Shown: positions 2,986-33,764, numbered from the stretch's first letter. The stretch: DNA of 64,000 bases from Formosa sp. PL04 (GCF_033447105.1 NZ_JAWQUN010000002.1:416856-480855); one strand, 5' to 3'. Notes: generated from the sequence alone by a model not told the origin. Program-made: numbers and translations.

Positions 2986-4299
2986 ATGAAAAATATAGTT
3001 TCAAAATTATTTAGTATAATGTTAGTAGCCATAACATTATATAGTTGCAGCACAGACGACGAGATTACCGTGTTAAATGCTACAGCAACAACAGACCTAA
3101 TAACATCTGCAGACGACATTGTTCTGCTTAAAGAAAATGAAGAAGCTATTGCTTTAACATTAACTTGGACACAGCCAGATTACGGCTATAGTGCCATAGC
3201 AGATTACAATGTTTATTTTGATGTTGCTGGAAATAACTTCCAAAATGCAATTATAAAAGACGCTGGAAGCAAATTAGAGTACTCTCTTACAACTAAAGAC
3301 TTAAATACCATTCTGCAAACGTTAGAAATTGTACCAAATACAGAAACCGTTTTAGAAGTAAAAATAGAAAGTGTTGTTGGAACAAGTACCATTGCTGCAG
3401 TTTCGAATATTAGTAATTTAACGGTTACTGGTTATGCCAATGTTTTAGATTTAGTATCTGTTTGGGGACTTGTAGGAAGTGCAACTGTTAACGGTTGGGA
3501 TGGTCCTGATATGCCATTTTACAAAACAAACGTTGCTAATATTTTTAACGCTTATGTTACTTTAACTGATGGCGAATTAAAAATTAGAGCAAATAATAGC
3601 TGGGATTTAAATTATGGTGATACTGGTGACGACGGCACTTTAGAAGAAGGTGGCGATAATATTCTTGTTAAGGCTGGAACTTACAAAGTAACCTTTAATG
3701 AAGCGACATTAACTTACAAAATAGAGCCTTACACTTGGGGACTTGTTGGTAGCGCTACTCCTAATGGTTGGGATGGTCCTGATACGCCGTTAACTTACGA
3801 TCCAACTTCAGACCAATGGCGTGCTATTGTACCGCTAACAACTGGAGATATGAAGTTCAGAAAAAATAATGACTGGGCATTCAATTACGGAGACGATGGA
3901 AATGACGGGGCATTAGAAGATAATGGAGCAAACATTCCTGTTACTGCCGGAAATTACCTTGTCACTTTAAACCTAAACGATTTAACCTACACTCTAGAAC
4001 CTATAGAAAAATTATGGGGTATTGTAGGTAGTGCAACTCCTAATGGCTGGGATGGTCCTGATACGGTTATGAATATAGATTACACTATAGAAGGTGTATG
4101 GTATCTATACCAAATTACACTTACAGATGGGGAAATGAAATTTAGAGCCAACAACGATTGGAACATAAATTATGGAGATGATGACAATGATGGTTCCTTA
4201 GAAGATGGAGGGGGAAATATTACTGTTGAAGCAGGAGTTTACGATATTGTATTAGACTTATCAGACACCTCTAACCCAACGTATACTTTAACTAAATAA
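2986..4299 (+). CDS. SusE/SusF-like surface glycan-binding lipoprotein with three tandem ~100-aa repeats
   Basis: Lipoprotein signal (ITLYSCSTDD). Three internal repeats each carrying WGLVGSATxNGWDGPD ... NNxWxxNYGDxxxDGxLExGGxNI. Position is SusC-SusD-X. Confidence 0.7.
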   Translation: MKNIVSKLFSIMLVAITLYSCSTDDEITVLNATATTDLITSADDIVLLKENEEAIALTLTWTQPDYGYSAIADYNVYFDVAGNNFQNAIIKDAGSKLEYSLTTKDLNTILQTLEIVPNTETVLEVKIESVVGTSTIAAVSNISNLTVTGYANVLDLVSVWGLVGSATVNGWDGPDMPFYKTNVANIFNAYVTLTDGELKIRANNSWDLNYGDTGDDGTLEEGGDNILVKAGTYKVTFNEATLTYKIEPYTWGLVGSATPNGWDGPDTPLTYDPTSDQWRAIVPLTTGDMKFRKNNDWAFNYGDDGNDGALEDNGANIPVTAGNYLVTLNLNDLTYTLEPIEKLWGIVGSATPNGWDGPDTVMNIDYTIEGVWYLYQITLTDGEMKFRANNDWNINYGDDDNDGSLEDGGGNITVEAGVYDIVLDLSDTSNPTYTLTK

Positions 4300-4307
4300 C
4301 AATACAT

Positions 4308-4350
4308 ACGGGCTGTGATGTACTACATTACAGCCCGTATTGTTTTTAAT
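4308..4350 (+). terminator. Stem-loop (9-bp stem acgggctgt/acagcccgt) plus T-run downstream of the SusE-like gene
   Basis: Perfect inverted repeat 4308-4316 / 4330-4338, followed by attgtttttaattt. Confidence 0.5.
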
Positions 4351-4359
4351 TTATATCTT

Positions 4360-7218
4360 ATGAAAAAAACGATACTCGCTTTATTACTTTTAGTTCTTGC
4401 AAGCTTTAGTTATGCTCAAGTAACCACAAGTCCTACTACGTTTAATACGACAGAAACCATAACCATTACCGTAGATATTAAAAGTACAGATACAGATTGT
4501 AATACTCTAAATAATCCAACCAAAGTCTATATGCATTCTGGTATTGGTAACGATGCCGATCCTTGGGGCTATAACGTAGTTGGAAACTGGGGACAAGATG
4601 ATGGTTTTGGAGAAATGACTAATAATGGAGATGGCACCTGGAGTATTACTATGGTACCTAAAACCTATTATGGTTTAACCGATACTCAAGCAAATTCTGC
4701 TACCAAAATGGGAATGGTATTTAGAAACCCAGCAGGAAATCAAGAATTAAAAGCATCAGGATGTAATGACTTTTATATAAATGTTGGTACGTTTCAAGTG
4801 ACTCTTAATTCTCCTTCAGAAAACAGCACAACTATAGTTGCTTCTGGTAGTAGTATAAATATATCAGCATCTAACACAAACGGCAATGCGAATTACACAC
4901 TTAGTGCAAACGGATCTGCTTTAAACTCTAAAACAGGAGCTTCAACTTACTCGTTTACACATAGCAATATCACTACAAACCAAAACTATATTTTAACTGT
5001 AAATCAAGGATCTGAAACGCTTAGTAAATCTTTCTCCGTTTTAATTAATCCAGGAACTATGTCTCAAACCATGCCAAGCGGATTAGAAAACGGAATTAAT
5101 TACAATTCTAGCGATGCTTCAAAAGCCACGTTAGTTTTAGACGCGCCTTTAAAAGATTTTGTATACGTTGCTGGAAGTTTCAATAATTGGGAACCTTCTT
5201 CTGCTTATGCAATGAAAAAAGATACAAGTTCAGGAAAATTCTGGTTAGAATTAACGGGATTAACATCTCAAAAAACAGAGACGTATCAATATTGGGTCGT
5301 AGATGAAACGCCAATCGCCAATTCACCTGTCATGGTAAAAACTGCCGATCCGTTTTCTACTTTAGTATTATCACCATTCGACGATTCAGGAATATCTTCG
5401 GAAACTTATCCTAATTTACCAGCATATCCTACAGGTCAAGAACGTGAAGTTACCGTACTTGAAACAGGTAAAAGTGATTACAATTGGAACGTGACAAACT
5501 TTGAAAAACCTAAAAAAGAAGACTTAGTAATTTATGAAGTTTTAATCCGTGATTTCGATGAAGATAGAAATATTCAAGACTTAATTGATCGTATCGATTA
5601 CTTCAAAAACTTAAATATTAATGCCATTGAATTGATGCCAATCATGGAATTTGAAGGCAATGAAAGTTGGGGTTACAATACCGCTTTTCATATGGCTTTA
5701 GATAAATTTTATGGCACTGAAGATAAGATGAAAGAATTTATTGATTTGTGTCATGAAAATGGAATTGCAGTGATCTTAGATATTGCTTTAAATCACGCTT
5801 ACGGAAGAAATCCTATGGTACGTATGTGGATGAAAGATGCCGATGGCGATGGTTGGGGAGACCCAAGTTCTGAAAGTCCATATTTTAATGAAGAAGCAAA
5901 ACACAGCTACAATGTAGGTATGGATTTTAACCATCAGCAAGAACGCACTCAATATTATGTAGAACGCGTGGTGAATCATTGGGTAACCGAATTTAATATA
6001 GATGGATTCCGTTGGGACTTAACTAAAGGTTTTACTCAAAACTGCTCCCCTAGCGACGATACTTGCACAAATAATTACCAACAAGATCGTGTAGATGTTC
6101 TAAAAAAATATGCTGATTACTCTTGGAGTTTAGATGCTTCACATTACGTTATTTTCGAACATTTAGGTCAGGATAACGAAGAGCAACAATGGGCCAATTA
6201 TAAAATTGACGAAGGCAAAGGCATCATGATGTGGGGAAAAATGACAGATCCTTACAACCAATTAACAATGGGATATGATTCTGACACTAACATTGACAGA
6301 ATGGGATATAAATCTCATGGTTTTACAGGAAAGCGTTTGGTAGGTTATGCAGAAAGTCATGACGAAGAACGTTTAATGTATAAAAACGTTCAATATGGTG
6401 CGTCTTCTGGATCTTACAATGTAAAAGATCTAAATACATCCTTAAAAAGAATGGAAGCTTTAGGAGCAATTACCCTAACAATTCCTGGTCCGAAAATGGT
6501 TTGGCACTTTGGCGATTTAGGAATGGATAATTCTATTTTTACATGTACAGATGGCTCTGTTTCTGCAGACGATTCTTGTAAACTAAGCACAAAACCTCAG
6601 CCACAATGGGAAAATAATTGGTTAGGAAATGAAAACAGAAAAGCCGTATACGATACGTGGTCTAGATTAAATCTTTTAAAAGTTAATGAGGATGTTTTTG
6701 AAGGCGATTATACGATTACTTCAGGGAATTTAACACCTAGAATTCATGTTTGGAACTCGACTTTAGCTTCAACAGAATTAAGCGAAGTGGTTATTATTTC
6801 AAATTTTGAAACCACTACTCAAACCGTGGATCCTAATTTCCCGAGCAACGGAACTTGGTACGACTTAATGGACGAATCAGGAAACACTTCTATTTCGGCA
6901 ACAAACGCGATTACATTACAACCTGGAACATTTAAAATCTACGGAAATAATGTACCACAAAGTTTAAGTGTTAACGATGCTGCTTTAGCTAAGCCTTTTG
7001 CTATTTTCCCAAATCCTACACAAAACAGCTTTAAAATTAATGCTGCAGTTACAAGCGTTAGCATTTTCGATATTACAGGAAAAGAAGTAAAACAATATAA
7101 AGGAAACTTTAATTCAGACTCCTCTTTTAATGTTTCGAATCTTAAATCTGGATTATATATTATTAGAATAATCAATTCAGAAGGACAACAAAACACTTCG
7201 AAACTTATGAAAATTTAA
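4360..7218 (+). CDS. Secreted GH13 alpha-amylase with a CBM48-like module and a T9SS C-terminal sorting domain
   Basis: Signal peptide MKKTILALLLLVLASFSYAQ at the internal ATG 4360. The listed ORF start at 4315 overlaps the upstream hairpin. CBM48-like motif VYVAGSFNNWEP. GH13 regions DIALNHA and GFRWDLTKG. The last ~80 aa (FPNPTQNSFKI..GLYIIRIINSEGQQNTSKLMKI) look like a Por/T9SS C-terminal domain. Confidence 0.85.
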   Translation: MKKTILALLLLVLASFSYAQVTTSPTTFNTTETITITVDIKSTDTDCNTLNNPTKVYMHSGIGNDADPWGYNVVGNWGQDDGFGEMTNNGDGTWSITMVPKTYYGLTDTQANSATKMGMVFRNPAGNQELKASGCNDFYINVGTFQVTLNSPSENSTTIVASGSSINISASNTNGNANYTLSANGSALNSKTGASTYSFTHSNITTNQNYILTVNQGSETLSKSFSVLINPGTMSQTMPSGLENGINYNSSDASKATLVLDAPLKDFVYVAGSFNNWEPSSAYAMKKDTSSGKFWLELTGLTSQKTETYQYWVVDETPIANSPVMVKTADPFSTLVLSPFDDSGISSETYPNLPAYPTGQEREVTVLETGKSDYNWNVTNFEKPKKEDLVIYEVLIRDFDEDRNIQDLIDRIDYFKNLNINAIELMPIMEFEGNESWGYNTAFHMALDKFYGTEDKMKEFIDLCHENGIAVILDIALNHAYGRNPMVRMWMKDADGDGWGDPSSESPYFNEEAKHSYNVGMDFNHQQERTQYYVERVVNHWVTEFNIDGFRWDLTKGFTQNCSPSDDTCTNNYQQDRVDVLKKYADYSWSLDASHYVIFEHLGQDNEEQQWANYKIDEGKGIMMWGKMTDPYNQLTMGYDSDTNIDRMGYKSHGFTGKRLVGYAESHDEERLMYKNVQYGASSGSYNVKDLNTSLKRMEALGAITLTIPGPKMVWHFGDLGMDNSIFTCTDGSVSADDSCKLSTKPQPQWENNWLGNENRKAVYDTWSRLNLLKVNEDVFEGDYTITSGNLTPRIHVWNSTLASTELSEVVIISNFETTTQTVDPNFPSNGTWYDLMDESGNTSISATNAITLQPGTFKIYGNNVPQSLSVNDAALAKPFAIFPNPTQNSFKINAAVTSVSIFDITGKEVKQYKGNFNSDSSFNVSNLKSGLYIIRIINSEGQQNTSKLMKI

Positions 7219-9916: not shown

Positions 9917-10318
9917 ATGAAACAAATACTTATTTTACTTGTAGCCGTGATCTGTTTTTCATGTAATTCAGATGATGATGGAAATGTTAATTATTCATTT
10001 AACCCACCGTCATGGATTCAAGGATCTTGGTATACTGCCGAATTGAGTATAGAAGGTGTAAAATTCACTTCAGATGATTTTTGTACGATTACCAATGCAA
10101 ATCAAACATGTTATAAAGCGTTAATTGCACAAGCTGATGACACTATAACTGTAGACAACCAACAAAGTACAGATAACGATTATACCTTTGTAGTAGTATA
10201 CTTAGGGGAACCTGGTGTAGAAAAAGATAAATACTTCTATTTTAGAAAACTATCGGAAACACAGATAGCTTCTGTTGGAGAAGATGGGGAAACACTAGAC
10301 ATCTATACTAAACATTAA
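9917..10318 (+). CDS. Hypothetical lipoprotein (paralog A)
   Basis: Signal peptide with lipobox (VICFSCNSDDD). Shares FNPPxWIQGxW...KFTxDxFCTI with the next gene. Confidence 0.6.
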   Translation: MKQILILLVAVICFSCNSDDDGNVNYSFNPPSWIQGSWYTAELSIEGVKFTSDDFCTITNANQTCYKALIAQADDTITVDNQQSTDNDYTFVVVYLGEPGVEKDKYFYFRKLSETQIASVGEDGETLDIYTKH

Positions 10319-10378: not shown

Positions 10379-10421
10379 AGATTAAAAACTATAAAGTTGT
10401 AAATTGCAAAAAAACACTGCC

Positions 10422-10805
10422 ATGAAAAAATTTATTCTATTAATCGTTATTACCACCTTTTTCGCCTGTGACTCTTCAGACGACAGTCAAGAACAGGTAT
10501 TTAACCCACCAAACTGGATTCAAGGTACTTGGGACGCAGATAATGCCGACGAAGCGAATGTAAAGTTCACAACAGATAACTTCTGTACAATTATTCTAAA
10601 TGTAGAAGCTTGTCTTGCCTCTGCAATTGAAGGATCTTATGGGACAATCAGGATCGAAAATGAAGTCGTTACAGATACTGATTACAAATTTACAATTAAC
10701 AGAACAACTGGAAGCACTAATTTTCATTACAGAAAAAAAACAGACAGTACAATGGTATTTGTGCTTTTAAGCAATATTGAAACTGTAGTTTTCAATAAAA
10801 AATAA
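10422..10805 (+). CDS. Hypothetical lipoprotein (paralog B)
   Basis: The ATG at 10422 gives MKKFILLIVITTFFACDSSDD. The listed ORF begins at an upstream TTG (10404). About 35% identical to paralog A. Confidence 0.6.
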   Translation: MKKFILLIVITTFFACDSSDDSQEQVFNPPNWIQGTWDADNADEANVKFTTDNFCTIILNVEACLASAIEGSYGTIRIENEVVTDTDYKFTINRTTGSTNFHYRKKTDSTMVFVLLSNIETVVFNKK

Positions 10806-13331: not shown

Positions 13332-14166
13332 AAATCAGTCAAAGTATACTTAGTGAAACTATTATTTTTTCTAAATTTTTCTTTTTCCTATTTATTACAA
13401 TTCAAATAAACCCTAACGCCAATATCCTTAAACTACTTAAAAACAAAAGCCAACGCAGTTGTTTTTCAAATAATAGTACATTAAAAACTACTCCTGCATG
13501 TGTTTTATTTGCATTTTAGGATCTGTTCTAAATCCTTGATAAAAAGTAACGATTTAAACATCTAGAAAAGATACTATTACGGGTTCCTTTTTAAAAACAA
13601 AATTATGGCGTTTTAGTGTTATTCCTTTATCGTTAAGATGCATTTCCTATAATGATAATCTTGAAACAAAAATAAGAACAAAAACACCAATTCCAGATAT
13701 CATTAATTTTAAGCCAACATCTTTCTTTAGCCCAAATCGATCCCATAAAACAAGCTAAAAATAACAGCAGCAACGAGCACCAATAAAATAATTAAATCGG
13801 ACATTTTTTATTTTACAGAGTAGTCTTTTTGGTTACTCAATTTAGGCATACAATCAATTTAAAATAATCAGTATTAAATAATCCTTAGTACCTAATTACT
13901 TATTTATTCCAATATCAAGATAAAGGTGTTTAAATTGTTAAACAATCATCTAATTATATAGCATCACACTTAATAAAAAAACGTATTTTTAACAAAAACA
14001 CCTAACTATTACACACTACACTTTCTTTAAATTATTTATTGTTTTAAAAAAACACATAAAAATTATTGAAACAACATTTTAAAATACAAAAAAAAATACA
14101 ATTTACAATCTTTAGCTTTTTTTTCACCGTTCACTTATTTATCGTGTAAAAATCACCTAAATTGTA

Positions 14167-17100
14167 ATGTCTTTAACTGGATTATTTATGGCTTTAAAAA
14201 TAGTAATTACTCACAAAACGAAATACAAGTACGACAGATTAGTATCGTTATCTCCCCACATTTTTAGATTACGTCCTGCACCTCATAGTCGAACTCCAAT
14301 AGAAGCATATTCTATTAAAATCACACCAGAAGAACAATTTTTTAATTGGCAACAGGACCCTTTTGGGAATTATATGGCACGATTAATTTTCCCGGAAAAA
14401 ACGAGAGAATTAACTGTAGAAGTAGAAATTATTGCTGATTTAAAAACCATAAATCCATTTGATTTCTTTGTTGAAGAAAGTGCTGAAGAATTCCCGTTTA
14501 CGTACACAGACACCATAAGAAAAGAGCTTCTACCCTATTTAGAAATTACAGAAAGAGGTCCGCTTTTACTAGATTTCATTCAGACTATTGATATGACTCC
14601 TAGAAAGACCATTTATTTTCTAATTGACATCAATCAGAAAGTTTATGAATATTTAAAATATAACATCCGGATGGATCCGGGTGTACAATCTTGCGAAGAA
14701 ACACTAGATCACAGAACGGGATCTTGTCGTGATTACGCTTGGCTATTTGTACAGGCTTTACGTCATTTAGGATTTGGAGCACGATTTGTTTCAGGATATA
14801 TTGTTCAATTAAAATCTGATGAAAAATCGTTAGATGGTCCTTCTGGCCCTGAAGAAGATTTTACAGATTTACACGCTTGGGCCGAAGTTTATCTTCCTGG
14901 TGCTGGTTGGATTGGTTTCGATGCTACCTCTGGTTTATTGTGTGGTGAAGGGCATATCCCTCTAGCTTGTACGCCTTCTTTTGAAAGTGCAGCTCCAGTA
15001 AGCGGAATGACAGATATTTGTGAAACCACATTTGAATTTGAAAATTCTGTTAAACGTATTTTTGAATCTCCACGTGTAACCAAACCCTATACAGAAGAGC
15101 AATGGAATGCCATATACAAACTTGGTTTTAAAGTTGAAAAAGAATTAGAAAAAGGCGATGTAAGATTAACCATGGGTGGTGAACCTACATTTGTATCTAT
15201 AGACGATATGGAAGGTGAAGAATGGAACACAGCTGCCGATGGTCCTCACAAACGTGAACTTGCAAAAAATTTAGCCGCAAAATTATACGACGAATACGAT
15301 AACGGTAGTGTATTACATCAAGCGCAAGGAAAATGGTATCCAGGAGAACCGTTACCACGCTGGCAAATAGAACTATGTTGGAGAAAAGACGGTAAGAAAA
15401 TATGGCATAATAAGAAATTATTAGCTCTATTTTCAAACAATCCAGTCCTTCCTGAAAATGCTTCAGAATTATTCTTAAAAACGTTAAGCCGGAAATTAGA
15501 CATCACCGACGAATATATCATTCCTGCATACGAAGATGCGTTTTACTTTATGTGGGAAGAAGGAAAATTACCTGTAGATGTAGATCCTACAGTAGATGAC
15601 GGTGCTTTATTAGTTAAAGACAAATTAAAACAAATCCTAAAAGACGGAAAATCTAAAGCCATCGGACATGTGTTACCATTAAATAACACATCAGACACAT
15701 GGCACTCTAACACTTGGAGTTTTAGACGTAATCATTTATTCTTAATTCCAGGAAATTCTCCTATCGGTCTAAGATTACCTTTAGACTCTTTACTTAGAGA
15801 CCCTGAGTTTGGTGATTTCCCGAAGCAAGAACCTGATAATTTTACAAAAAAGAAAAAATTACCGAGTTATAAAAATATTGTTTTAAGACGTTCAAAAAAC
15901 GTTAATGAACATGGCATTTCCGAAGACACAAATAACTATTTTATACGTACAGGTTTATGTGCCGAAGTTAGAGATGGAAAAATGCATTTATTTTTCCCTC
16001 CTTTAGATACTGCAGAAATCTTTTTGGATTTAGTATCTTCTATAGAAGCAACAGCAAAAGAACTTAAGATACCCGTTGTTTTAGAAGGTTACGATGCACC
16101 ACATGACACCCGTTTGGAATCGATGAAAATTACTCCAGACCCAGGTGTAATTGAAGTAAACGTGCAGCCGGCAAAAAACTGGAAAGAACTTACAGACAAC
16201 ACCTTAACCCTATACAGACTAGCTAAAGAGTCGCGTTTGGGTACAGAAAAATTCATGTTAGATGGAAAACACACCGGAACTGGTGGTGGAAACCATGTTA
16301 CTTTGGGAGGTATTACACCTAAAGACAGTCCGTTGTTACGTAAACCAAGTTTATTACGAAGTTTGCTAACCTTTTGGCAACATCATCCAGGACTTTCATA
16401 CTTGTTTTCTGGAGCATTTATTGGAGCCACAAGTCAGGCGCCACGTATAGATGAAGCGCGTATGGAAAACCTATACGAACTTGAAATTGCGTTCAGTCAA
16501 ATTCCGAAAAGTGGAAAAGTGCCCTTTTGGTTAACAGACAGATTATTCCGTCACTTATTAACCGATTTAACAGGAAACACGCACCGTGCAGAATTCTGTA
16601 TCGATAAGTTATACTCACCAGATTCATCTACTGGACGATTAGGTATTTTAGAGCTACGTGCTTTTGATATGCCTCCGCATCCACAAATGAGTTTAATGCA
16701 AAACTTGTTAGTACGAACACTTGTTGCTTGGTTCTGGAAGAAACCTTACGAGCACGATTTAGTACGTTGGGGAACAGAATTACACGATAAATTCTTAACA
16801 GAACATTACGTTAGAGAAGATATAAAAGACATTGTTACGCAACTTAACAAGGCTGGATATAAATTTAAAGAAGACTGGTTTAATCCGTTCTTCGAATTTA
16901 GATTTCCGCTTCATGGAATGGTTGAAATAAATAATATTAATTTAGAATTACGTGCTGCTATCGAACCTTGGAATGTATTAGGTGAAGAAATGACTGGTGG
17001 TGGAACTGCTAGATATGTAGATTCTTCTGTAGAGCGTATTCAAGTTAAAGTAACACATTTTACTGAAGAACGTTATGTTTTAACCTGTAATGGTGTGAAA

Positions 17101-17520
17101 ATTAACTTAAATAATACAGGTGTAAAAGGCGAATTTGTTGCCAGTATTAGATATAAAGCATGGAATCCGCATTCTTCTTTACATCCAACAATTGACGTAG
17201 ATACCCCTTTGGTTTTCGATATTATTGACACTTGGAATAGACGTGCCATTGGAGGTTGTACATATTTTGTTGCACATCCAGGAGGACGATCTTACGAAAC
17301 CTATCCAATAAACAGTTATGAGGCTGAGTCTAGGCGAATTAACCGTTTCTGGGATATAGGACATACTCAAGGTGAAATTTTTGAAGTGGAAAAAATTGAA
17401 CAAGACGACAATAATTCAAGTAGAAATGTCGAAATTCACGGCAGTTCTAGAAAATATAAATATCAAGAACAACCTATTAATTTCGAATTTCCTTATACTT
17501 TAGATTTAAGAAAAAAATAA
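14167..17520 (+). CDS. Transglutaminase-like cysteine-protease-fold protein (Bact_transglu_N + transglutaminase core + DUF2126-type extension), 1117 aa
   Basis: N-terminal IVITHKTKYKYDRLVSLSPHIFRLRPA. Candidate Cys-His-Asp triad in GSCRDYAWLF, DLHAWAEVYLPGAGW and GFDATSG. Confidence 0.75.
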   Translation: MSLTGLFMALKIVITHKTKYKYDRLVSLSPHIFRLRPAPHSRTPIEAYSIKITPEEQFFNWQQDPFGNYMARLIFPEKTRELTVEVEIIADLKTINPFDFFVEESAEEFPFTYTDTIRKELLPYLEITERGPLLLDFIQTIDMTPRKTIYFLIDINQKVYEYLKYNIRMDPGVQSCEETLDHRTGSCRDYAWLFVQALRHLGFGARFVSGYIVQLKSDEKSLDGPSGPEEDFTDLHAWAEVYLPGAGWIGFDATSGLLCGEGHIPLACTPSFESAAPVSGMTDICETTFEFENSVKRIFESPRVTKPYTEEQWNAIYKLGFKVEKELEKGDVRLTMGGEPTFVSIDDMEGEEWNTAADGPHKRELAKNLAAKLYDEYDNGSVLHQAQGKWYPGEPLPRWQIELCWRKDGKKIWHNKKLLALFSNNPVLPENASELFLKTLSRKLDITDEYIIPAYEDAFYFMWEEGKLPVDVDPTVDDGALLVKDKLKQILKDGKSKAIGHVLPLNNTSDTWHSNTWSFRRNHLFLIPGNSPIGLRLPLDSLLRDPEFGDFPKQEPDNFTKKKKLPSYKNIVLRRSKNVNEHGISEDTNNYFIRTGLCAEVRDGKMHLFFPPLDTAEIFLDLVSSIEATAKELKIPVVLEGYDAPHDTRLESMKITPDPGVIEVNVQPAKNWKELTDNTLTLYRLAKESRLGTEKFMLDGKHTGTGGGNHVTLGGITPKDSPLLRKPSLLRSLLTFWQHHPGLSYLFSGAFIGATSQAPRIDEARMENLYELEIAFSQIPKSGKVPFWLTDRLFRHLLTDLTGNTHRAEFCIDKLYSPDSSTGRLGILELRAFDMPPHPQMSLMQNLLVRTLVAWFWKKPYEHDLVRWGTELHDKFLTEHYVREDIKDIVTQLNKAGYKFKEDWFNPFFEFRFPLHGMVEINNINLELRAAIEPWNVLGEEMTGGGTARYVDSSVERIQVKVTHFTEERYVLTCNGVKINLNNTGVKGEFVASIRYKAWNPHSSLHPTIDVDTPLVFDIIDTWNRRAIGGCTYFVAHPGGRSYETYPINSYEAESRRINRFWDIGHTQGEIFEVEKIEQDDNNSSRNVEIHGSSRKYKYQEQPINFEFPYTLDLRKK

Positions 17521-17527
17521 ACGATTA

Positions 17528-20089
17528 ATGCCGATTGATAAAAACACCTTGTTTGAAAACTATTTTTCAAACTCAAAGAATTACGACGAAGTTCTTAAAT
17601 CAAATATGTCTATTAATCCCAATTGGGAAAAATTATTGAGTAATCTTACTCAAGCAGGCACTAAAACCATGATCTCAAAACAAGATGAGATGGATTGGTT
17701 AATGGACGAAAACGGTGTAACCTATAATGTTTATAACGACCCTAAAGGGATGCACCGTTCTTGGAAATTAAATATAGTGCCCTTTCTTATTCATCAAAAA
17801 GAATGGGCTACTATAGAAAAAGGTATACAACAGCGTTCGGAATTATTAAACCTGACGTTAAAGGATATTTATGGCAAGCGTGAACTTATTAAAAACGGCA
17901 TTTTACCGCAAGAAGTAATATATGCGCATCGCGGTTTTTTAAGACAATGCGATCAAATTAAGTATTCGACAGCCAAAAATTTATTAATTCATACTGTAGA
18001 TTTAGCACGCGGTCCAGATGGCCAAATGTGGGTGGTTAACGATAGAACTCAAGCACCTTCGGGTATGGGTTATGCGTTAGAAAACCGTTATGCAACAAGC
18101 CGTATTTTACCAGATATCTTTAAAGATATTAATGTAAAACCGCCATCGTCGTTTTTTGCAGATTTTAATAAAATGCTAATAGACGCGGCACCTCAAAACA
18201 AAGAGAATCCAACTATTGTTATCCTTACTCCTGGCCCATTAAATGAAACCTATTTCGAGCATGCTTACATGTCTTCATTTTTAGGTTACCCTTTAGTTGC
18301 TGGAAATGACTTAGTCGTTAGAAGTGGAAAAGTTTGGATGAAGTCTTTAAAAGAACTTAAACAAGTCGATGTTATTTTAAGACGTGTAGACGATGTTTTT
18401 ATGGATCCATTAGAGCTTCGTGAAGATTCTTATTTGGGAGTCGCAGGCCTTCTTGATGCTGTAAGAGAACAACAAGTAACTATTATTAATCCTATAGGAA
18501 GCGGAATTTTAGAAAACTCCGGACTTATCCCATTTTTGAATGCCATTTGTAAATACTTTTTTAAAGAAGATTTAATTCTTCCGCAAATAGGTTCATGGTG
18601 GTGTGGACAGAAAAAAGAACGTGATTATGTTCTAGAAAACTTAAAGAATTTAGTTCTAAAACGTATCGATAGATCTAACAGAGAAAGCATCTTTTTCTGT
18701 GAATTTTTAAAACCAAGTCAATTAGAAAGTTTAAAAAAAGACATTCTTTCGAATCCGTATGTTTTTGTAGCTCAAGAGAAAATATTATTTTCTACAGCTC
18801 CTGATTTTGTAAAAGACAAACTAGAACCACGCAAAGTGATGTGCAGAACATTCTCGATTGCAAAAGAAGATGGCTATTCTGTAATGCCTGGTGGTTTAGT
18901 TCGGGTTGCTTCAGAGCGCGAAGAATTATTTGTATCAAATCAACGTGGTGGTGTAAGTAAAGATTTTTGGATTATTACAGACGAGCCTCAGACTAATATT
19001 CAAAATTATTCTTGGGACAGTACTTTTAAAATTTCACAGTCAGGAATTAACGATTTACCTAGTAATACCGCTGAAAATTTATATTGGTCTGGACGTTATT
19101 TAGGAAGAGCTTTAGTTACCGCACGCTATTTACGGACAGTGCTAACCAAAATGAGTAACGAGCAGTACAATAAACAAAAAACGCAATCAGAAAGCTTGCT
19201 ATGTTTATTTCAATCTGTAACACATATTACCTCAACATTCCCAGGATTTACAGGTAAAGAAGGAGAAAAGGCATTAGAAAACCCGTTAAAAGAAATTCTA
19301 TCTATTATTATAGATAATAATCGTCCAGGAAGTTTTGCACAGACACTTGCTAGTTTTAATAATTCCTATTTTACATTACGAAATTTATGGTCTAAAGATA
19401 TGTGGCGTGTGTTTGATGGCATCCAGAAAATTTGGAAAACATTTGTAGACGAACCTGGAGAAAAAAGATCAATTCAGTCACTTATAAAACTATTAGATAA
19501 AATTATTACAAGACTTATTGCTTTTATGGCTCTTATTGAAGAAAGCATAATGGTTGAACAAGGTTTACTTCTATATTTTATTGGTTTACAAAGCGAACAA
19601 GCCGTCATGAATATTTCTAAATGCCGTTCACTTTTAGTTGTTAGCCACAAAAAGCAACCACAATATGAAATCTTAGAAGCTTTATTATCCAGTCATGAAA
19701 GTTTAAATATTTACAGATACAGTTACCGTTCGCATTTAAGTACGGAAAACGTTATTAATCTTATTCTATTAAATAAAGAATATCCAAAATCGTTGACGTA
19801 TCAACTTGAAAGAATTCAAAAAGATATTGATAGATTACCACACTCTGAAGACATTGGAAAAATAACAGATTGTCAGAAAGCCATATCGAAAGCAAATTCT
19901 AAAATAAGAAGTTTACAAATTAAGGACCTATTAGAATTAAGTGATGAAACAGTTATTAGACAGAATTTAGATGATGCATTAACAGAATTGAGCGACCTAT
20001 TACATGAAATGTCTCTAGCAGTATCAGACACTTATTTTAATCATGCTTACCAGCAAAAACAATTGGTTAATCAAAATTTCCCCTTTTAA
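17528..20089 (+). CDS. Fusion of a circularly permuted ATP-grasp amidoligase (DUF404/DUF407-like) and an alpha-E domain (DUF403-like), 853 aa
   Basis: Sits between two transglutaminase-like genes, the canonical context of this module. The IGSWWCGQ region is present, and the C-terminal ~300 aa are alpha-helical. Family names recalled from memory, not searched. Confidence 0.6.
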   Translation: MPIDKNTLFENYFSNSKNYDEVLKSNMSINPNWEKLLSNLTQAGTKTMISKQDEMDWLMDENGVTYNVYNDPKGMHRSWKLNIVPFLIHQKEWATIEKGIQQRSELLNLTLKDIYGKRELIKNGILPQEVIYAHRGFLRQCDQIKYSTAKNLLIHTVDLARGPDGQMWVVNDRTQAPSGMGYALENRYATSRILPDIFKDINVKPPSSFFADFNKMLIDAAPQNKENPTIVILTPGPLNETYFEHAYMSSFLGYPLVAGNDLVVRSGKVWMKSLKELKQVDVILRRVDDVFMDPLELREDSYLGVAGLLDAVREQQVTIINPIGSGILENSGLIPFLNAICKYFFKEDLILPQIGSWWCGQKKERDYVLENLKNLVLKRIDRSNRESIFFCEFLKPSQLESLKKDILSNPYVFVAQEKILFSTAPDFVKDKLEPRKVMCRTFSIAKEDGYSVMPGGLVRVASEREELFVSNQRGGVSKDFWIITDEPQTNIQNYSWDSTFKISQSGINDLPSNTAENLYWSGRYLGRALVTARYLRTVLTKMSNEQYNKQKTQSESLLCLFQSVTHITSTFPGFTGKEGEKALENPLKEILSIIIDNNRPGSFAQTLASFNNSYFTLRNLWSKDMWRVFDGIQKIWKTFVDEPGEKRSIQSLIKLLDKIITRLIAFMALIEESIMVEQGLLLYFIGLQSEQAVMNISKCRSLLVVSHKKQPQYEILEALLSSHESLNIYRYSYRSHLSTENVINLILLNKEYPKSLTYQLERIQKDIDRLPHSEDIGKITDCQKAISKANSKIRSLQIKDLLELSDETVIRQNLDDALTELSDLLHEMSLAVSDTYFNHAYQQKQLVNQNFPF

Positions 20090-20091
20090 TT

Positions 20092-20979
20092 ATGGAATTT
20101 AAAGTATCACATACAACCAGTTACGACTACGATAGTGGAGTAACCTTTTGTCATAACATTGCGACTTTAAAGCCCAGAACAATACCCGGGCAAACGATAT
20201 TAGAATATAAACTTGAAATAAGTCCAGAACCTTCAGAAATAACAGAACGTTTAGATTTTTTTGGAAATATAATTACAAGATTTTCCATTCAAGAACATCA
20301 TAAAAAGTTAAAAGTAACTGCAAAAAGTACAATATTAAGAGATTATGCATCTCAACCAGATATTGAAACTTCTAAAATGGGTAAATCTATCTCTTTAGAA
20401 GATTCTTTAAAAATTTTAAAAACGAATAAACTCGATCTCATTGATGTCAATCAATTTAAGTTAGAATCTATATTTATAACTCATATTACTAAAGAAATAA
20501 AGGAATATGCTGAAGCGTCTTTTAAAGCAGACCGTTCTGTTTTTGAAGCGTCTTACGAGTTAATGCAACGTATTTTTACTGAATTTGAATTCGATTCCGA
20601 ATTTAGTACTATTGCGACTCCTATTCAAGAAGTTATGAAAGAGAAAAAGGGTGTGTGTCAGGATTTTGCTCAAATAGCAATTGCATGTGTACGCTCTATA
20701 GGATTACCAGCCCGTTATGTTAGTGGTTATATTGAAACATTACCACCACCCGGGAAAGAAAAATTAGTTGGAACTGATGCGTCTCATGCTTGGTTTTCTG
20801 TTTATATTCCTACTTTTGGTTGGGTAGATTTTGACCCTACAAACAATCATATCCCTAAGAACCAACACATCACTGTATCTTGGGGTAGAGATTATTACGA
20901 TGTACCACCTTTAAAAGGTGTTGTATTTAGTGCAGGAAAAACTAAAATGAAAGTAGCGGTAGATATAAGACCTGCTTAG
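20092..20979 (+). CDS. Transglutaminase-like protein with a Bact_transglu_N domain (295 aa)
   Basis: MEFKVSHTTSYDYDSGVTFCHNIATLKPR. Candidate Cys/His/Asp residues in GVCQDFAQIA, DASHAWFSVYIP and GWVDFDPTN. Confidence 0.75.
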   Translation: MEFKVSHTTSYDYDSGVTFCHNIATLKPRTIPGQTILEYKLEISPEPSEITERLDFFGNIITRFSIQEHHKKLKVTAKSTILRDYASQPDIETSKMGKSISLEDSLKILKTNKLDLIDVNQFKLESIFITHITKEIKEYAEASFKADRSVFEASYELMQRIFTEFEFDSEFSTIATPIQEVMKEKKGVCQDFAQIAIACVRSIGLPARYVSGYIETLPPPGKEKLVGTDASHAWFSVYIPTFGWVDFDPTNNHIPKNQHITVSWGRDYYDVPPLKGVVFSAGKTKMKVAVDIRPA

Positions 20980-21139: not shown

Positions 21140-21898
21140 TTAATTTACATAATTATAAATAAGACTTAAAGTAGAAGTCTCGTTATATCTTGTATCGATA
21201 GAAGTTAAGGTTGCTGATTTCGGATAATTATCTGCATCATAACTGTAATTCGCATTTAAGGTTAGTACAATTTCTCCTTTTTCGTTTTTATAAATTATTT
21301 GTGCCGGATTATTTAAAGGAAATAAAAGTTTTGCTTTAATAATTTCTGATGATTGTGTTAAACTGAAATTTAATTTAACCTTATCTAAAGCTGAAATAAT
21401 ACCAGCCGAATCTAAAGTGTAATAATATGGATTTGGCGCATTGTCGTATTTAATTTCGGCTGTATATTCCTCTGTCCAGTATTCTCCAGTTTCATAATCA
21501 TATTCGTCTTCAAAAAACATTATAATTTTAGGATTTCCGTTATCATCGTATTCTAAAACTTGACCAATTTCAAAAGCATCATAAGGTGAATCGAAAAAAC
21601 TCTCAACATTTAAAATATCACCATCTCCAGAAACGTTTGTTAACTGATTATCATCGTATACAAAAATACTAGACTCTTCACCATTACTTATAGTGTTTAA
21701 TGTCCCATTTGCATTATAGCTAAGGCTAATAACTCTATTTTCGTTAGAATCCTGACCAGAAGTAAAAATTACGGATTGTATTAATTTCGTTTCAACATTA
21801 CCATTAACCTCTTCAAATTCATCGGAAGTAGAATCACTACAGCTTATAGTTAGTAAAGCACCTAAAAATAGAGGCAAAAAAATGGTTGACTTTTTCAT
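21140..21898 (-). CDS. Hypothetical lipoprotein
   Basis: Signal peptide plus lipobox (LLTISCSDS). Confidence 0.55.
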   Translation of the reverse strand: MKKSTIFLPLFLGALLTISCSDSTSDEFEEVNGNVETKLIQSVIFTSGQDSNENRVISLSYNANGTLNTISNGEESSIFVYDDNQLTNVSGDGDILNVESFFDSPYDAFEIGQVLEYDDNGNPKIIMFFEDEYDYETGEYWTEEYTAEIKYDNAPNPYYYTLDSAGIISALDKVKLNFSLTQSSEIIKAKLLFPLNNPAQIIYKNEKGEIVLTLNANYSYDADNYPKSATLTSIDTRYNETSTLSLIYNYVN

Positions 21899-25984: not shown

Positions 25985-28900
25985 TTATTTTCTTAAACCA
26001 TTTTGTAGCACATCTTTAATACCTTCTAAGTTTTCGGTAAATTGCATCATTTGCACAAGTAATTGCGCCATTTCATTCTTACCTCCAAAACCTTTAAGCT
26101 TATTATTCTTTTGAAAGGTTTCTCGAATAGACTCCCATCTTATTTGTTCATTTTCAGAAAGATCTCCGATAAGCTCCTTGTATTTTAATAGATTTGCTTC
26201 AGCAGAAGACGTCAACGTTTGTGATTCACTTTCATAATGAGAAAGCACTAAGGTCTTCAATTCTTTATCGTTCATTACAGGAACAACTTTTGCCACTAAT
26301 TTATTCATGTCACGATAAGACCCCTGTAATTTAAACGATGGTTCTACTCTATACTCATCCTCCATAGCAGCGCTTTTAATATATGTTTCGTTAACTTTAA
26401 GCACGGTGTTCCTAATCTGAATAACTTTTTCTAAAACCGACACATATTCTTGAATCTCTTGATTTGTATAATTACCTGTTAATTGGGCTTCTTGATTATC
26501 ATTTTCAATACGATCTAATAATCTATACACATCATCAAAGTTCTTACTTCCTAATTGCTGTAACACCGGATTAGATGTTAATGAATTTTCTATAAGACTC
26601 AGCCTAAACAAATGCGCTGTATCCCCAATAATATCTCCCAGATTATAAATATCTGCTCTATTGGCTAACATATCTGGAATTCTAAATTTATCGCCACTTT
26701 CTGTGTATGGATTTCCTGCCATGACTACACAAAACTTCTTTCCACGTAAATCGTAAGTTCTAGATTTACCGTTATAAACACCTTCTACTTTCCTAGTACC
26801 GTCTGATAATGAAATAAATTTTTGCAAAAATTCAGGATTACAATGCTGAATATCGTCAAGATATAACATCACATTATTTCCCATTTCAAAAGCTAAGTTT
26901 AACTTTTTCAACTCTTCTCTGGCAGCAGAATTTGTAGCCGAAGAAGGATCTACAGAAGTAACATCATGACCAATAGCTGGGCCATTTATTTTCATAAAAA
27001 TTAGACCTAACCTATTCGCTAAATATTCCATCAAGGTTGTTTTACCATATCCCGGAGGAGAAATAAGGAGTAATAACCCCATTCTATCGGTTCTTTTTAA
27101 ATCTCCAACTGTACCTAATTGTTTTGCTAGGTTATCTCCAAAAAGCGGAAAATAAACTTGATCTATTAATTTATTTCTAACAAATGAACTTAATATTCTA
27201 GGCTTAAATTCTTCTAATTTTAAATCTTCTTTTAACTGAATAGTAACATCATGTTTTGCTTTTCTAAAAGCATTAAAAGCAGGCACTTTTTCCTTGAAGT
27301 AATATTCGTGTAAAATAACAAAATCGTGAAAATTAAAACTATAAACACCATCTTTAATCGTGTTATGCTCACCTCTTAAACCTTCTATTTTTTCTGAAGG
27401 CGATGTGAATTTTGTATTTAAAACCGCTTCATCTTCAAATAAAATTAAACACACAACTTCATTTACATACTTCAATTTTAACTGGAGATCTTCAGTATTA
27501 TCACTCGCTAAAAAGGCTTTCACCCACTGACTAATTAATGCTACTTTAGCTTCGTTTGCTTCTAACTTATCTAAGCTCTTTTTAAATTTTATATCTGCTT
27601 TTTGATCTTTAAGAGTGTTTAAAAAAGCCTCTTTAATTTGTATTGCTATACCACTTTTCTGAAAATCATTATCGATTTGAAGTTCTTCAAAAAGATATTC
27701 TGCAGCGTCCTTTGCTAAAGTCGTTTCATAAATCCCTGTCTGAATTCCAAATTCAAAAATTGACTCTTCTAATTTCTTTACAATAAACGCATATTCTCTA
27801 GCGGCAGGAAAAAACTGTACAACTTCTCCAGATGCTTTTATAGTTTCATTTAGATATTGCTGATGCTCTTTACTCGTGAAATTCCAAAAATACTGAGCAC
27901 AAGCTCTAATCTCGGCATGATATCTTAATAAATCTAACGTTCTATATTTCTGAATAAGTGTCGATAATATTTTAGCTGCATCCTGATCATGAACACCTTT
28001 AACATAGCCTTCGGAATAGTCTTTACTACTCTCATCCTGAACCAATTTTAATAACGCTTCTTCGGTATATTCTAATATTTTATCTTGATGCTTTTTGAAG
28101 ATTTTATAAGCCAAATATCCTCCACGATAGACCATTTTGTTTTCTGAAACATAATCCTGGTTCCAAAATTCTTCTGATTTTAAAAGTATTTCATTTTCAA
28201 TTTTTTGATAAAAATCGGAACCCGTAAGATGATATTTTAAACTCCCATCTGTATAAACTATTGTTAAATCTAATTCTTGATTATTAACTCCAAACTTATG
28301 CTTACCTAAACGAATAACATTATCGCCATCTTCGTATAATTCCTTTTTATCCTTAAGTTTTCTTATAGCATCTTCTTTAGCAGATTTTAGTAATGACTGA
28401 ATTTCTTCGGCCTTACCACTATCATCCATATCCTGAAGTTGCTTAGAAATGTCCCTAGCCTTATTTACTAAAATATCTGATGCAAAATACCCATGAATAT
28501 CTGAAGATTCAGAAAATGATTCTGCCTTTTTACGTACACCTTTTAAAATACGCTCTGCTGAATTCTGTAGCATTAGAGCACGTTTATTACGCTTTTCTAC
28601 AAGACTATTTTTACGCGCCTGAAAAGCATTATAAACCTCTTCTCTTTTTTCTATAATTAAACCAATAAACGTTTCATAATCGGCAAACTTCCCTTCAAGT
28701 TCTTCTAATTGAATGGATATTTTAGTTTGAAAATCATCACATTTTTCAGGCAAATCTGCAATATCAAGATAATTAATAATACTCTGATCTATTAATTTTA
28801 ATTGTGCTGCAAACTCGGCCTGTGCTTCTTCACTCCCTAAAGCTTTTCTATTTTTTCTAATTTCTGCTTTTAACTGGTTTATGGTAGCAAAAATTAATGA

Positions 28901-30862
28901 GATATTATTAATAATACGTGTGGAGTGAGACGTATCTTCGATTTCTAAATTTGAAACGATTTCTATAAGTAGCTCTAAGTCTTTAGAAATTTTATTTACT
29001 TGCTCTTCTAAATCCTTTGCCTCAATAACCTTATTAACCTTAGTTAAAGCTTGCTCTTTTTCCTTAATAGCATCTTCGTAAGGCTTCAAAGCTTTATCGT
29101 CCAACAAAAAATGCGCACAACGTTCAGAAATTCGAGTTGTTTGTTCTGCAATATTCTCCTCTAACCTCGTTATAAAACCTTCATCTACGTAACGAATTTC
29201 TTTTAAACCAATAGCTTCACCACGCAAAGCTCTTAACTGGGTTAAATAGCTTACAAAATCATTAATACTTCTAAAACTTGTACTCTTAATTTTATTAAAA
29301 ACCTGATTGGCTTTAACTTCTATTTCGTTAATCTTATCGCCTGCGTTTTTCTTTAATTGTATAACCTTCTGAAATTCATCGATTGCTGCATTGGCGGCTT
29401 GGTTAATCTCCTTTAAAGGTTCATTTAATTTTTGTGTTTCATCTTCAGTTAACCAATAATAAGAATCTAATATATCTTTAGAACGTTTTGCTAGGTCTAC
29501 ATATAAACCATCATAATTATCTTCTTTATTTAAAAGATTTATAAGTCCATGAACTTCAGCCATAGCTTTTACAATATCCTTATTCCCGATTTTATATAAC
29601 AAACTGTCTTGATGTGCAGATGGAATAAAATCATCTTTTAAGTAAGGGGTTTGCCAAATCTGAATTACATGGTGTCTGGTTTGTTCGTTTTCATTCCTAA
29701 AATAACATAACTCACCATCTTTTAAAATTGTAAATCCATTACATATAATAGGAGTTTGTATTTCTTGAGAAATGACATTATAACTCATTAAATTATAAAG
29801 CCCTTGTTTGGCAGAATAAAAGACATAAAGGTAATCTTCTCCATTAGGAGAAGCTATTTTCTCTTGAAACTTTACATTTGGAATACTATTATCGAATATA
29901 TAATATTCTCCCGTTTGCAAATAATACCCTGTTGAAAAAATTACTCCATGATTTTCTGGAAGTAAAACACAGGCTTCTTTTATACTTTCAATTTTCTGAA
30001 TTTCTTTAAGTTTATGGTTATAAACAAAGTATCGAGAACTTTCTTGAAAGGGTTTTATATCTAAAATAATCAGGTTTCCTAAATTAGCAAATCTATACTG
30101 ACCATCGTCTAAAGTTTGATCGCGGTGTTCTACTTCTTCAGAATAAATACCTTTTCCATCGTCTGTATTATCTTCAATTTTAATAGTTAAATCACCTTCA
30201 ATAGTTTCTACAAAAACACGATCTAGAATAGACACATGAGCGTGCACACCTCGACGATGCATATCTCTAGTTACTTCCTGCCAATTAAATTCATGTTGTA
30301 ATGGTAATTTATATTCGTGATCACTTCTATCGCCCTCATACTGAAGTTTATCATCTTTTATTAACCATTTAAAGGCTTTAATATCTGTAACACTTTCACT
30401 TAATTGAAAAATCATGTAAAGATAATTTCCTATTACAGCGAACTTAGAAAATATAGTATTACGATAATATTTATAAAGATTAGTGAAATCTGATTGAAAA
30501 ACGGAATCATCAAGTAAATCTAAAGCAACAGATTCAAAACTATTATTTTTAAATCTATAAAGGCTCATAACATCATTTAAAGCAATTTCTGTTCTTAACC
30601 CAAAATGCACATTATAACCAAATAGACATGTATCACCAAGAGAAACTATATCTCTAGCAATACAGTTATTTTCAGTATTAATACGATCGCTAGTGATTAG
30701 TTTAGTTTCTAAAGAGCCAAAAACATCTTTTCTACCATCGTTTAATTTTTTAAGACGTTGTTGTAATTCAGTTTTTTGTTTTTGAAGTCGGTTTTGAATA
30801 ACCTCATAAGTGCCAACATCTAGTTTTTGATTATGTTCTTCCTTTATAGGTTCCTTTTTCAT
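25985..30862 (-). CDS. Giant (1625 aa) coiled-coil-rich protein with a C-terminal MoxR/AAA_5-like AAA+ ATPase domain
   Basis: About 1250 aa of largely alpha-helical, Glu/Lys-rich sequence. Then Walker A ISPPGYGKTT, Walker B VMLYLDDIQ, sensor VVMAGNP and an Arg-finger-like IPDMLANRADI. Last gene of the operon. Confidence 0.7.
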   Translation of the reverse strand: MKKEPIKEEHNQKLDVGTYEVIQNRLQKQKTELQQRLKKLNDGRKDVFGSLETKLITSDRINTENNCIARDIVSLGDTCLFGYNVHFGLRTEIALNDVMSLYRFKNNSFESVALDLLDDSVFQSDFTNLYKYYRNTIFSKFAVIGNYLYMIFQLSESVTDIKAFKWLIKDDKLQYEGDRSDHEYKLPLQHEFNWQEVTRDMHRRGVHAHVSILDRVFVETIEGDLTIKIEDNTDDGKGIYSEEVEHRDQTLDDGQYRFANLGNLIILDIKPFQESSRYFVYNHKLKEIQKIESIKEACVLLPENHGVIFSTGYYLQTGEYYIFDNSIPNVKFQEKIASPNGEDYLYVFYSAKQGLYNLMSYNVISQEIQTPIICNGFTILKDGELCYFRNENEQTRHHVIQIWQTPYLKDDFIPSAHQDSLLYKIGNKDIVKAMAEVHGLINLLNKEDNYDGLYVDLAKRSKDILDSYYWLTEDETQKLNEPLKEINQAANAAIDEFQKVIQLKKNAGDKINEIEVKANQVFNKIKSTSFRSINDFVSYLTQLRALRGEAIGLKEIRYVDEGFITRLEENIAEQTTRISERCAHFLLDDKALKPYEDAIKEKEQALTKVNKVIEAKDLEEQVNKISKDLELLIEIVSNLEIEDTSHSTRIINNISLIFATINQLKAEIRKNRKALGSEEAQAEFAAQLKLIDQSIINYLDIADLPEKCDDFQTKISIQLEELEGKFADYETFIGLIIEKREEVYNAFQARKNSLVEKRNKRALMLQNSAERILKGVRKKAESFSESSDIHGYFASDILVNKARDISKQLQDMDDSGKAEEIQSLLKSAKEDAIRKLKDKKELYEDGDNVIRLGKHKFGVNNQELDLTIVYTDGSLKYHLTGSDFYQKIENEILLKSEEFWNQDYVSENKMVYRGGYLAYKIFKKHQDKILEYTEEALLKLVQDESSKDYSEGYVKGVHDQDAAKILSTLIQKYRTLDLLRYHAEIRACAQYFWNFTSKEHQQYLNETIKASGEVVQFFPAAREYAFIVKKLEESIFEFGIQTGIYETTLAKDAAEYLFEELQIDNDFQKSGIAIQIKEAFLNTLKDQKADIKFKKSLDKLEANEAKVALISQWVKAFLASDNTEDLQLKLKYVNEVVCLILFEDEAVLNTKFTSPSEKIEGLRGEHNTIKDGVYSFNFHDFVILHEYYFKEKVPAFNAFRKAKHDVTIQLKEDLKLEEFKPRILSSFVRNKLIDQVYFPLFGDNLAKQLGTVGDLKRTDRMGLLLLISPPGYGKTTLMEYLANRLGLIFMKINGPAIGHDVTSVDPSSATNSAAREELKKLNLAFEMGNNVMLYLDDIQHCNPEFLQKFISLSDGTRKVEGVYNGKSRTYDLRGKKFCVVMAGNPYTESGDKFRIPDMLANRADIYNLGDIIGDTAHLFRLSLIENSLTSNPVLQQLGSKNFDDVYRLLDRIENDNQEAQLTGNYTNQEIQEYVSVLEKVIQIRNTVLKVNETYIKSAAMEDEYRVEPSFKLQGSYRDMNKLVAKVVPVMNDKELKTLVLSHYESESQTLTSSAEANLLKYKELIGDLSENEQIRWESIRETFQKNNKLKGFGGKNEMAQLLVQMMQFTENLEGIKDVLQNGLRK

Positions 30863-30948: not shown

Positions 30949-30961
30949 CAATGAATTAATT

Positions 30962-33761: not shown

Positions 33762-33764
33762 GGT

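Follow-up and report, generated by a model that had tools for sequence, protein, structure and literature searches.

Which bonds are made and broken, and on which substrate, when a bacterium encodes ATP-dependent ligases side by side with transglutaminase (TGase)-like thiol enzymes? The question is raised by a three-gene locus in a 64-kb stretch of DNA from Formosa sp. PL04 (Flavobacteriaceae), referred to here in its full length as the window. The open reading frames (ORFs) lie at positions 14167-17520, 17528-20089 and 20092-20979, all on the plus strand, and encode an 1117-amino-acid (aa) protein in which a TGase-like domain is fused to DUF2126 (gene 1), an 853-aa fusion of a circularly permuted ATP-grasp domain with an Alpha-E domain (gene 2), and a standalone TGase-like protein of 295 aa (gene 3). 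We tentatively propose that these proteins sustain a cytoplasmic, ATP-dependent cycle that would make and remove amide bonds on a conserved substrate, probably by marking proteins for turnover with peptides or amino acids; taken as a whole, we hold this reading to be plausible, if somewhat short of likely.

The module is already known and annotated in RefSeq, and the copy in the window is an ordinary member of it. An association of ATP-grasp, Alpha-E and transglutaminase domains was predicted by comparative genomics (Iyer et al. 2008, PMC2588565), and two papers on the proteasome homologue Anbu (PMC5666114, PMC6376114) cite Iyer et al. 2009 (Mol Biosyst 5:1636) for it. An initial annotation, made from the sequence of the window, described the locus as a module predicted to ligate and cleave peptides, for which no substrate is known; this agrees with PMC2588565, PMC5666114 and PMC6376114.

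Organisation of the operon

Genes 1 and 2 are separated by 7 nt (17521-17527) and genes 2 and 3 by 2 nt (20090-20091), in keeping with the contiguous arrangement first reported. The three genes form one operon, whose members would be co-transcribed. Every domain that the initial annotation had named, including the ATP-grasp and Alpha-E domains of the 853-aa protein on which it staked its description, is recovered by Pfam with scores far above the curated cut-offs, and the Cys-His-Asp triads, which it had singled out for inspection, are intact in both TGase domains (genes 1 and 3). No NCBIfam model matches any of the three proteins. None of them has a signal peptide, a hydrophobic N-terminus or a transmembrane segment.

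Upstream of gene 1 lies an unusually long, AT-rich intergenic region of 836 nt (13332..14166), the presumed site of the promoter. No Rfam family and no Bacteroidetes-type -33/-7 consensus was found in this region, and sigma-70 sites were no more numerous there than in shuffled sequence. It also contains a minus-strand ORF for a hydrophobic peptide of 25 aa (13727-13804). No convincing terminator was found 3' of 20979.

A predicted ATP-grasp ligase fused to an Alpha-E domain

The protein encoded by gene 2 (17528..20089, plus strand) is 100% identical to an annotated protein of Formosa sp. PL04 (P0001), and a search with the fused protein gave at least 7,908 homologues at E <= 1e-10. Its ATP-grasp domain (aa 85-461, 17780..18910, plus strand) spans the whole of two Pfam profiles, CP_ATPgrasp_2 (PF14403; E 1.4e-145, 485.4 bits against a cut-off of 32, profile positions 1-374 of 374) and CP_ATPgrasp_1 (PF04174; E 4.9e-102, 341.8 bits against 23.1, positions 1-332 of 332), and matches Protein Data Bank (PDB) entry 3n6x by sequence at E 8.7e-82. 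The AlphaFold2 (AF2) model of gene 2 (predicted local distance difference test score, pLDDT, 72.8) returned the same entry in Foldseek (E 2.4e-26, template modelling score 0.81); eukaryotic glutathione synthetases came next, and further matches were YgiC and the glutathionylspermidine and trypanothione synthetases. At 51 ATP-grasp positions that are at least 93% conserved across 94 homologues, fused and split, the window protein keeps 49 residues, the exceptions being L248M and G276E. On these comparisons, the domain is a predicted carboxylate-amine ligase with a modelled fold of the permuted glutathione-synthetase type. A stand-alone ATP-grasp homologue from the Anbu operon of Yersinia bercovieri frees phosphate from ATP (PMC6376114).

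Beyond 3n6x, every significant structural match of the ATP-grasp domain is to a small-molecule, amide-forming ligase, and this favours a different explanation, in which the operon would serve a small-molecule pathway. The two ligases would build a low-molecular-weight amide conjugate, for example a short non-ribosomal peptide or an amine linked to a gamma-glutamyl or peptidyl group, with the TGase-like domains as the matching amidases; gene 1 would be a bifunctional synthetase/amidase, and the conjugate would store, protect or scavenge nitrogen or amines. We take this possibility seriously and rate it as somewhat unlikely, on evidence that is spread over all three genes and is given below as it arises.

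The Alpha-E half of gene 2 (aa 510-837, 19055..20038, plus strand; PF04168, E 6.3e-55, 187.4 bits against a cut-off of 20.8, profile positions 1-294 of 294) is an all-helical bundle in the AF2 model, with no significant structural match in the PDB. The domain is named after its conserved ‘ER’ motif(s). Among 95 Alpha-E domains, fused and split, 80 show the usual signature of R513, E526-R527 and E690-R691. Motif analysis of the window protein shows instead N513 (19064-19066), G526-R527 (19103-19108) and E690-Q691 (19595-19600, all plus strand), that is, the changes R513N, E526G and R691Q at three of the domain's most conserved charged positions, so that the ER motif is not preserved. In Flavobacteriaceae the change is fixed: flavobacterial relatives share G526-R527 and E690-Q691 and carry N, H or L at position 513; G526 is found in 70 of 72 Flavobacteriaceae sequences, and apart from the altered signature residues the domain is well conserved within the family.

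The losses of E526 and R691 are correlated across phyla. Eight sequences lack E526, and six of these eight also lack R691; because the losses coincide, the alignment suggests that E526 and R691 work together as an interacting pair. This joint loss in Flavobacteriaceae is the sole new detail to come from the window, and it provides a natural experiment on the role of these residues.

A TGase-like domain joined to DUF2126

Gene 1 (14167..17520, plus strand) is given here as the longest ORF, of 1117 aa, the numbering of which is used throughout. It comprises, all on the plus strand, a Bact_transglu_N domain (aa 14-89, 14206..14433; PF08379, E 3.8e-26, 92.0 bits), a papain-fold Transglut_core domain (aa 152-253, 14620..14925; PF01841, E 1.5e-18, 67.4 bits) and DUF2126 (aa 283-1115, 15013..17511; PF09899, 1263.7 bits, profile positions 1-826 of 826). 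Homologues of gene 1 make up 2,461 clusters (50% identity) at E <= 1e-30. Since flavobacterial homologues are mostly 1103-1118 aa long, and since alignments begin at query residue 8 for distant homologues and at residue 10 for the paralogous gene 3, translation probably starts at Met8, the second ATG (nt 14188, MALKIVITH...), giving a protein of 1110 aa.

Gene 1 is paralogous to gene 3 over its first ~280 residues (24% identity, E 6e-23), which include a triad of Cys187 (GSCRD), His236 (LHAWAE) and Asp252 (GFDAT). The catalytic cysteine is present in 19 of 23 diverse homologues; only the four most divergent lack it. In these DUF2126 proteins (P0265, P0277, P0288 and P0306; 31-39% identity) it is replaced by P, A, D and A, respectively, and they may represent a subfamily with an inactive thiol domain.

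DUF2126 carries the Pfam label ‘putative amidoligase’, and Iyer et al. 2008 assigned the Rv2566 family, which has an N-terminal TGase-like domain, to the superfamily of carboxylate-amine/ammonia ligases, which are glutamine-synthetase-like (PMC2588565). From that placement and the Pfam name we infer that DUF2126 is a putative glutamine-synthetase-like amidoligase. Of the two ligase folds in the operon, that of the ATP-grasp domain is thus verified, and that of DUF2126 is taken from the literature; because of the latter assignment (PMC2588565) we count two ligases alongside two thiol enzymes. Gene 1 itself, modelled with AF2 from a shallow flavobacterial alignment, gave a poor structure with a pLDDT of 58.6, falling below 50 in the most conserved region (693-830).

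The layout of gene 1, with a papain-fold thiol domain ahead of a ligase domain, is like that of glutathionylspermidine synthetase/amidase and speaks for the conjugate-building pathway introduced above. The size of DUF2126 (~830 aa) and the extra Alpha-E domain speak against it, as both exceed what simple metabolite ligases need.

The standalone TGase-like protein

Gene 3 (20092..20979, plus strand, 295 aa) consists of Bact_transglu_N (aa 4-81; E 5.5e-27, 94.7 bits) and Transglut_core (aa 145-249; E 3.3e-20, 72.8 bits), and matches PDB entry 3isr by sequence at E 5.7e-15. The TGase-like proteins of the operon have the transglutaminase/papain fold, and in gene 3 the triad Cys189, His232 and Asp248 is invariant in all 57 homologues compared.

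Rv2569c of Mycobacterium tuberculosis, a neighbour of Rv2566 and Rv2567, is presumably a homologue of gene 3. It has been reported as a surface ‘serine protease’ that is inhibited by 4-(2-aminoethyl)benzenesulfonyl fluoride (AEBSF) and phenylmethylsulfonyl fluoride (PMSF), and not by E-64 or N-ethylmaleimide (PMC11081392). By extension, gene 3 would be a secreted or surface protease of broad specificity, and the operon would serve extracellular proteolysis or virulence. We regard this as highly improbable. The reported inhibitor profile does not match the invariant Cys-His-Asp thiol triad; gene 3 lacks the signal peptide or hydrophobic segment of an exported protein and is translationally coupled, in most phyla, to cytoplasmic ATP-dependent ligases; and Formosa is not a pathogen but degrades polysaccharides in the sea.

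Conservation of the operon across phyla

A scan of species-representative genomes yielded 80 loci, 65 of them (covering at least eight phyla) with sufficient downstream sequence, from Bacteroidota, Alpha-, Beta-, Gamma- and Zetaproteobacteria, Desulfobacterota, Verrucomicrobiota, Planctomycetota, Acidobacteriota and Poribacteria. TGase-DUF2126, then the fused ATP-grasp/Alpha-E gene, then the small TGase gene, the identical order to that in the window, is found in 49 of the 65, and in these 49 genes 2 and 3 commonly overlap by 4 or 1 nt. The fusion in the 853-aa protein, which the initial annotation had pointed out as a feature of this locus, is therefore real but not local: beside DUF2126 it is the standard form (49/65 loci). 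A separate ATP-grasp and Alpha-E pair occurs besides the fused gene in 20/65 loci and alone in 11/65, and neither form is present in 3/65. Annotated examples of the module are L001 and L003, and plasmid examples show a five-gene form.

A gene for Anbu, which is proteasome beta-like, is present at 16/80 loci and one for a zinc metallopeptidase at 8/80. The Anbu-like gene (~250 aa, N-terminus MTYCIA...) lies near DUF2126, mostly in loci with the split pair, with or without the fused gene (L011, L013, L017, L025, L027-L029, L031, L032, L038, L044, L054, L063, L065, L072 and L073). This linkage tells against a purely small-molecule pathway.

Compared with 43 non-flavobacterial loci, the parts of the operon show median identities of 59% (TGase domain of gene 1), 53% (DUF2126), 43% (ATP-grasp domain), 43% (gene 3) and 27% (Alpha-E). 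These loci were chosen for their resemblance to gene 1, so that its own values are inflated in absolute terms, but the ranking within genomes holds. Strong conservation across phyla suggests that the 1100-aa gene 1 protein is constrained by a universal substrate. A universal metabolite would suit this conservation too. The genes that flank the operon in the window (DUF2254, DUF2914, lipoproteins and an outer-membrane protein) are not syntenic with it elsewhere, so the operon is an autonomous unit.

The same data bear on a possible role of the operon in anti-phage defence or in conflict between bacteria. The module is plasmid-borne in some cases, and a large AAA ATPase is encoded downstream in the window, in a gene cluster (25985-34887) whose sole PADLOC match is weak (mad8, E 3e-4). 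Against these hints, genes 1-3 have no match in PADLOC-DB 2.0 and no relatives among 2.9 million viral contigs, their neighbours are variable and unrelated, and their high conservation and stable cross-phylum synteny are unlike those of fast-evolving defence genes. A role in defence would surprise us greatly.

One further locus of the scan, L008 (CAMCYD010000018.1), is a metagenome-assembled contig labelled ‘Helicobacter pylori PMSS1’ that holds the whole module, including a homologue of gene 1 that shares 62% identity with the flavobacterial protein. The taxonomic label is probably wrong.

Links to nitrogen metabolism

A search of the literature on DUF2126, Rv2566/67/69c, DUF403/404/407 and Anbu turned up only predictions, expression data, negative assays and the claim of protease activity for Rv2569c. 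In Burkholderia cenocepacia, I35_5080-83, which includes the large TGase protein, is sigma-54/NtrC-dependent under nitrogen limitation. PP_2685-2688 of Pseudomonas putida is induced on nitrate versus ammonium (PMC8050072) and in nitrogen-limited chemostats (PMC3325844), and in marine metagenomes the domains of the module co-vary with domains of urea metabolism (PMC3597751).

These links to nitrogen limitation and urea metabolism would also befit a small-molecule conjugate. Mycobacterium tuberculosis Rv2567, tried as a candidate in a 2026 preprint, made no gamma-aminobutyric acid (GABA)-trehalose in a single assay, which counts to that extent against such a product.

Alternatively, the operon could salvage ammonia: in nitrogen starvation, the TGases would deamidate glutamines of proteins or peptides, or use water as the acceptor, with release of ammonia, and the ligases would re-amidate or recapture the products. 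Transglutaminase chemistry frees ammonia, the idea is among the hypotheses put forward in PMC6376114, and the induction of the module by nitrogen limitation in Pseudomonas and Burkholderia fits it. Ammonia salvage leaves unexplained why two ATP-consuming ligases are so strictly linked to thiol enzymes, however, and it is an idea without experimental support, with expression data that come from outside Bacteroidota. We think it very unlikely.

A proposed amide-bond cycle

In the cycle that we tentatively favour, two ligases, the ATP-grasp domain of gene 2 and DUF2126 of gene 1, would each be partnered by a papain-fold thiol enzyme (the N-terminus of gene 1 and gene 3). A ligase would activate a carboxylate as an acyl-phosphate and join it to an amine, forming an amide or isopeptide bond. 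Next, the Cys-His-Asp domains would trim, de-tag or deamidate by hydrolysing or transferring that bond, and Alpha-E would assist the ATP-grasp domain in a non-catalytic or accessory role. The preferred target would be a conserved cellular protein or peptide, tagged and untagged for protein turnover and nitrogen recycling.

Such a cycle is supported by the 7-nt and 2-nt spacing, the synteny in 49/65 loci, the intact triads and the 49 of 51 conserved ATP-grasp residues, and further by the linkage to Anbu in 16/80 loci, the second, split pair in 20/65 and the proteobacterial nitrogen-limitation data. We lean towards proteins as the target because of the Anbu linkage, because most transglutaminase-fold enzymes are protein-directed, and because of the parallel with PafA and Dop of the Pup-proteasome system.

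Several results weigh against the proposal. The first concern the assignment of DUF2126 as a ligase: a hidden Markov model of 23 diverse gene 1 homologues found no match among PDB sequences, three pieces of DUF2126 found none in Pfam at E <= 10, and an hhalign comparison of DUF2126 with Escherichia coli GlnA, for which an approximate sequence was used, gave a probability of 0.2%. Others concern the window copy itself. Its Alpha-E domain is missing three charged residues that are conserved in the family; the upstream region (13332-14166) is devoid of a sigma-54 -24/-12 motif; tblastn queries with Anbu, split Alpha-E and the zinc metallopeptidase had no match within the 64 kb; and no second ATP-grasp gene or split ATP-grasp and Alpha-E pair was found there. 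The expression data are all proteobacterial and mostly concern the split/Anbu module; the nitrogen link in Bacteroidota is presumed. More than 15 years on, the literature reports no substrate or product for any member of the module, while Anbu showed no peptidase activity, and co-expression and pull-downs of Anbu-operon proteins gave no stable complexes (PMC6376114, PMC5666114).

Two further points against tagging bear directly on the choice between a protein and a metabolite. The characterised enzymes most closely related to the ATP-grasp domain have small peptides and amines as substrates rather than proteins. In addition, no small Pup-like tag or precursor ORF is conserved within 1.5 kb of the operon at the 80 loci, where a survey of small ORFs gave just antisense shadows of conserved genes and Pseudomonas-specific synteny; Iyer et al. 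2008 likewise saw no small tag ORF nearby (PMC2588565). The absence of a tag-like ORF, together with the structural neighbours of the ATP-grasp domain, favours the small-molecule pathway, the main rival to protein tagging.

Returning to protein tagging, a bolder version of it can be formulated. Gram-negative bacteria would tag proteins without a tag gene, the two ligases would attach amino acids or short peptides to the targets, the TGase-fold enzymes would edit or remove the marks, and the marks would direct turnover under nitrogen limitation, via Anbu where it is present; Flavobacteriaceae would have a stripped-down form without Anbu and with a rewired Alpha-E domain, in which E526 and R691 were lost together. 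In this full form the proposal is speculative and distinctly unlikely. If true, tag-gene-free tagging would be a functional counterpart of pupylation.

More generally, this is a widespread and conserved module that in Proteobacteria is part of the nitrogen-limitation regulon, and solving it could uncover new protein-modification or nitrogen-salvage chemistry. The copy in the window is no more tractable for this purpose than those in the genetically tractable Pseudomonas, Burkholderia and Mycobacterium.

Other features of the window

At its start (223-7218, plus strand) the window carries a polysaccharide utilisation locus with a SusC-like receptor fragment, SusD, SusE/SusF and an alpha-amylase bearing a type IX secretion C-terminal sorting domain. 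Two adjacent, paralogous lipoprotein-like ORFs of 133 aa (9917-10318 and 10404-10805, plus strand) and a third lipoprotein-like ORF (21140-21898, minus strand) have no Pfam match. The downstream cluster at 25985-34887 (minus strand) encodes a 1625-aa protein with DUF3686, DUF7902 and AAA ATPase domains, a 692-aa SPFH/Band 7 protein, a 234-aa protein, PspA/IM30 and a CesT_Tir_1-like protein, and may be a membrane-stress module.

Comparison with known systems

The closest structural references, 3n6x (Methylobacillus flagellatus Mfla_0391, ‘putative glutathionylspermidine synthase’) and 3isr (a transglutaminase-like putative cysteine protease from Cytophaga hutchinsonii), are structural-genomics entries without assigned function. 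In contrast to gene 2, 3n6x is a stand-alone ATP-grasp protein with no Alpha-E domain.

Among characterised enzymes, glutathionylspermidine synthetase/amidase and trypanothione synthetase-amidase are neighbours of the gene 2 ATP-grasp domain (Foldseek E 1e-5 to 1e-3), and gene 1 follows the same logic, in which a thiol amidase of papain fold is joined to a ligase that forms amides at the expense of ATP. The bifunctional glutathionylspermidine enzyme of E. coli, with its papain-fold amidase and synthetase halves, has the layout that gene 1 resembles. The likeness is limited by identities of ~10-12% and by the fusion partner, since the thiol domain of the operon is joined to DUF2126 and not to the ATP-grasp domain.

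The Pup-proteasome system of Actinobacteria (PafA, Dop and the 20S proteasome) offers an analogy only. Both would combine a glutamine-synthetase-like ligase, the literature assignment for DUF2126, with a bond-breaking partner, and a proteasome homologue, Anbu, appears in relatives of the operon (16/80 loci). The hydrolase of the operon, however, has a papain/TGase fold and not a glutamine-synthetase-like one, ATP-grasp and Alpha-E domains are additional, there is no Pup-like small ORF, and the window has neither an AAA unfoldase nor Anbu. The sequence and profile comparisons made here detected no homology of DUF2126 to PafA.

The nearest known system is the ATP-grasp, Alpha-E and TGase (with or without Anbu) ‘peptide-tagging’ module of Iyer et al. 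The locus differs from the Anbu operon in that Anbu and separate ATP-grasp and Alpha-E genes are absent from the window, and it shares with the Rv2566 family the architecture of gene 1, with a TGase-like domain at the N-terminus and a ligase domain at the C-terminus. Compared with the module of Iyer et al. that contains an Rv2566-type protein, the window holds a three-gene core, without Anbu, the split pair or the zinc metallopeptidase and with G526 and Q691 in Alpha-E, whereas all five domain types, the gene order and the tight spacing are alike.

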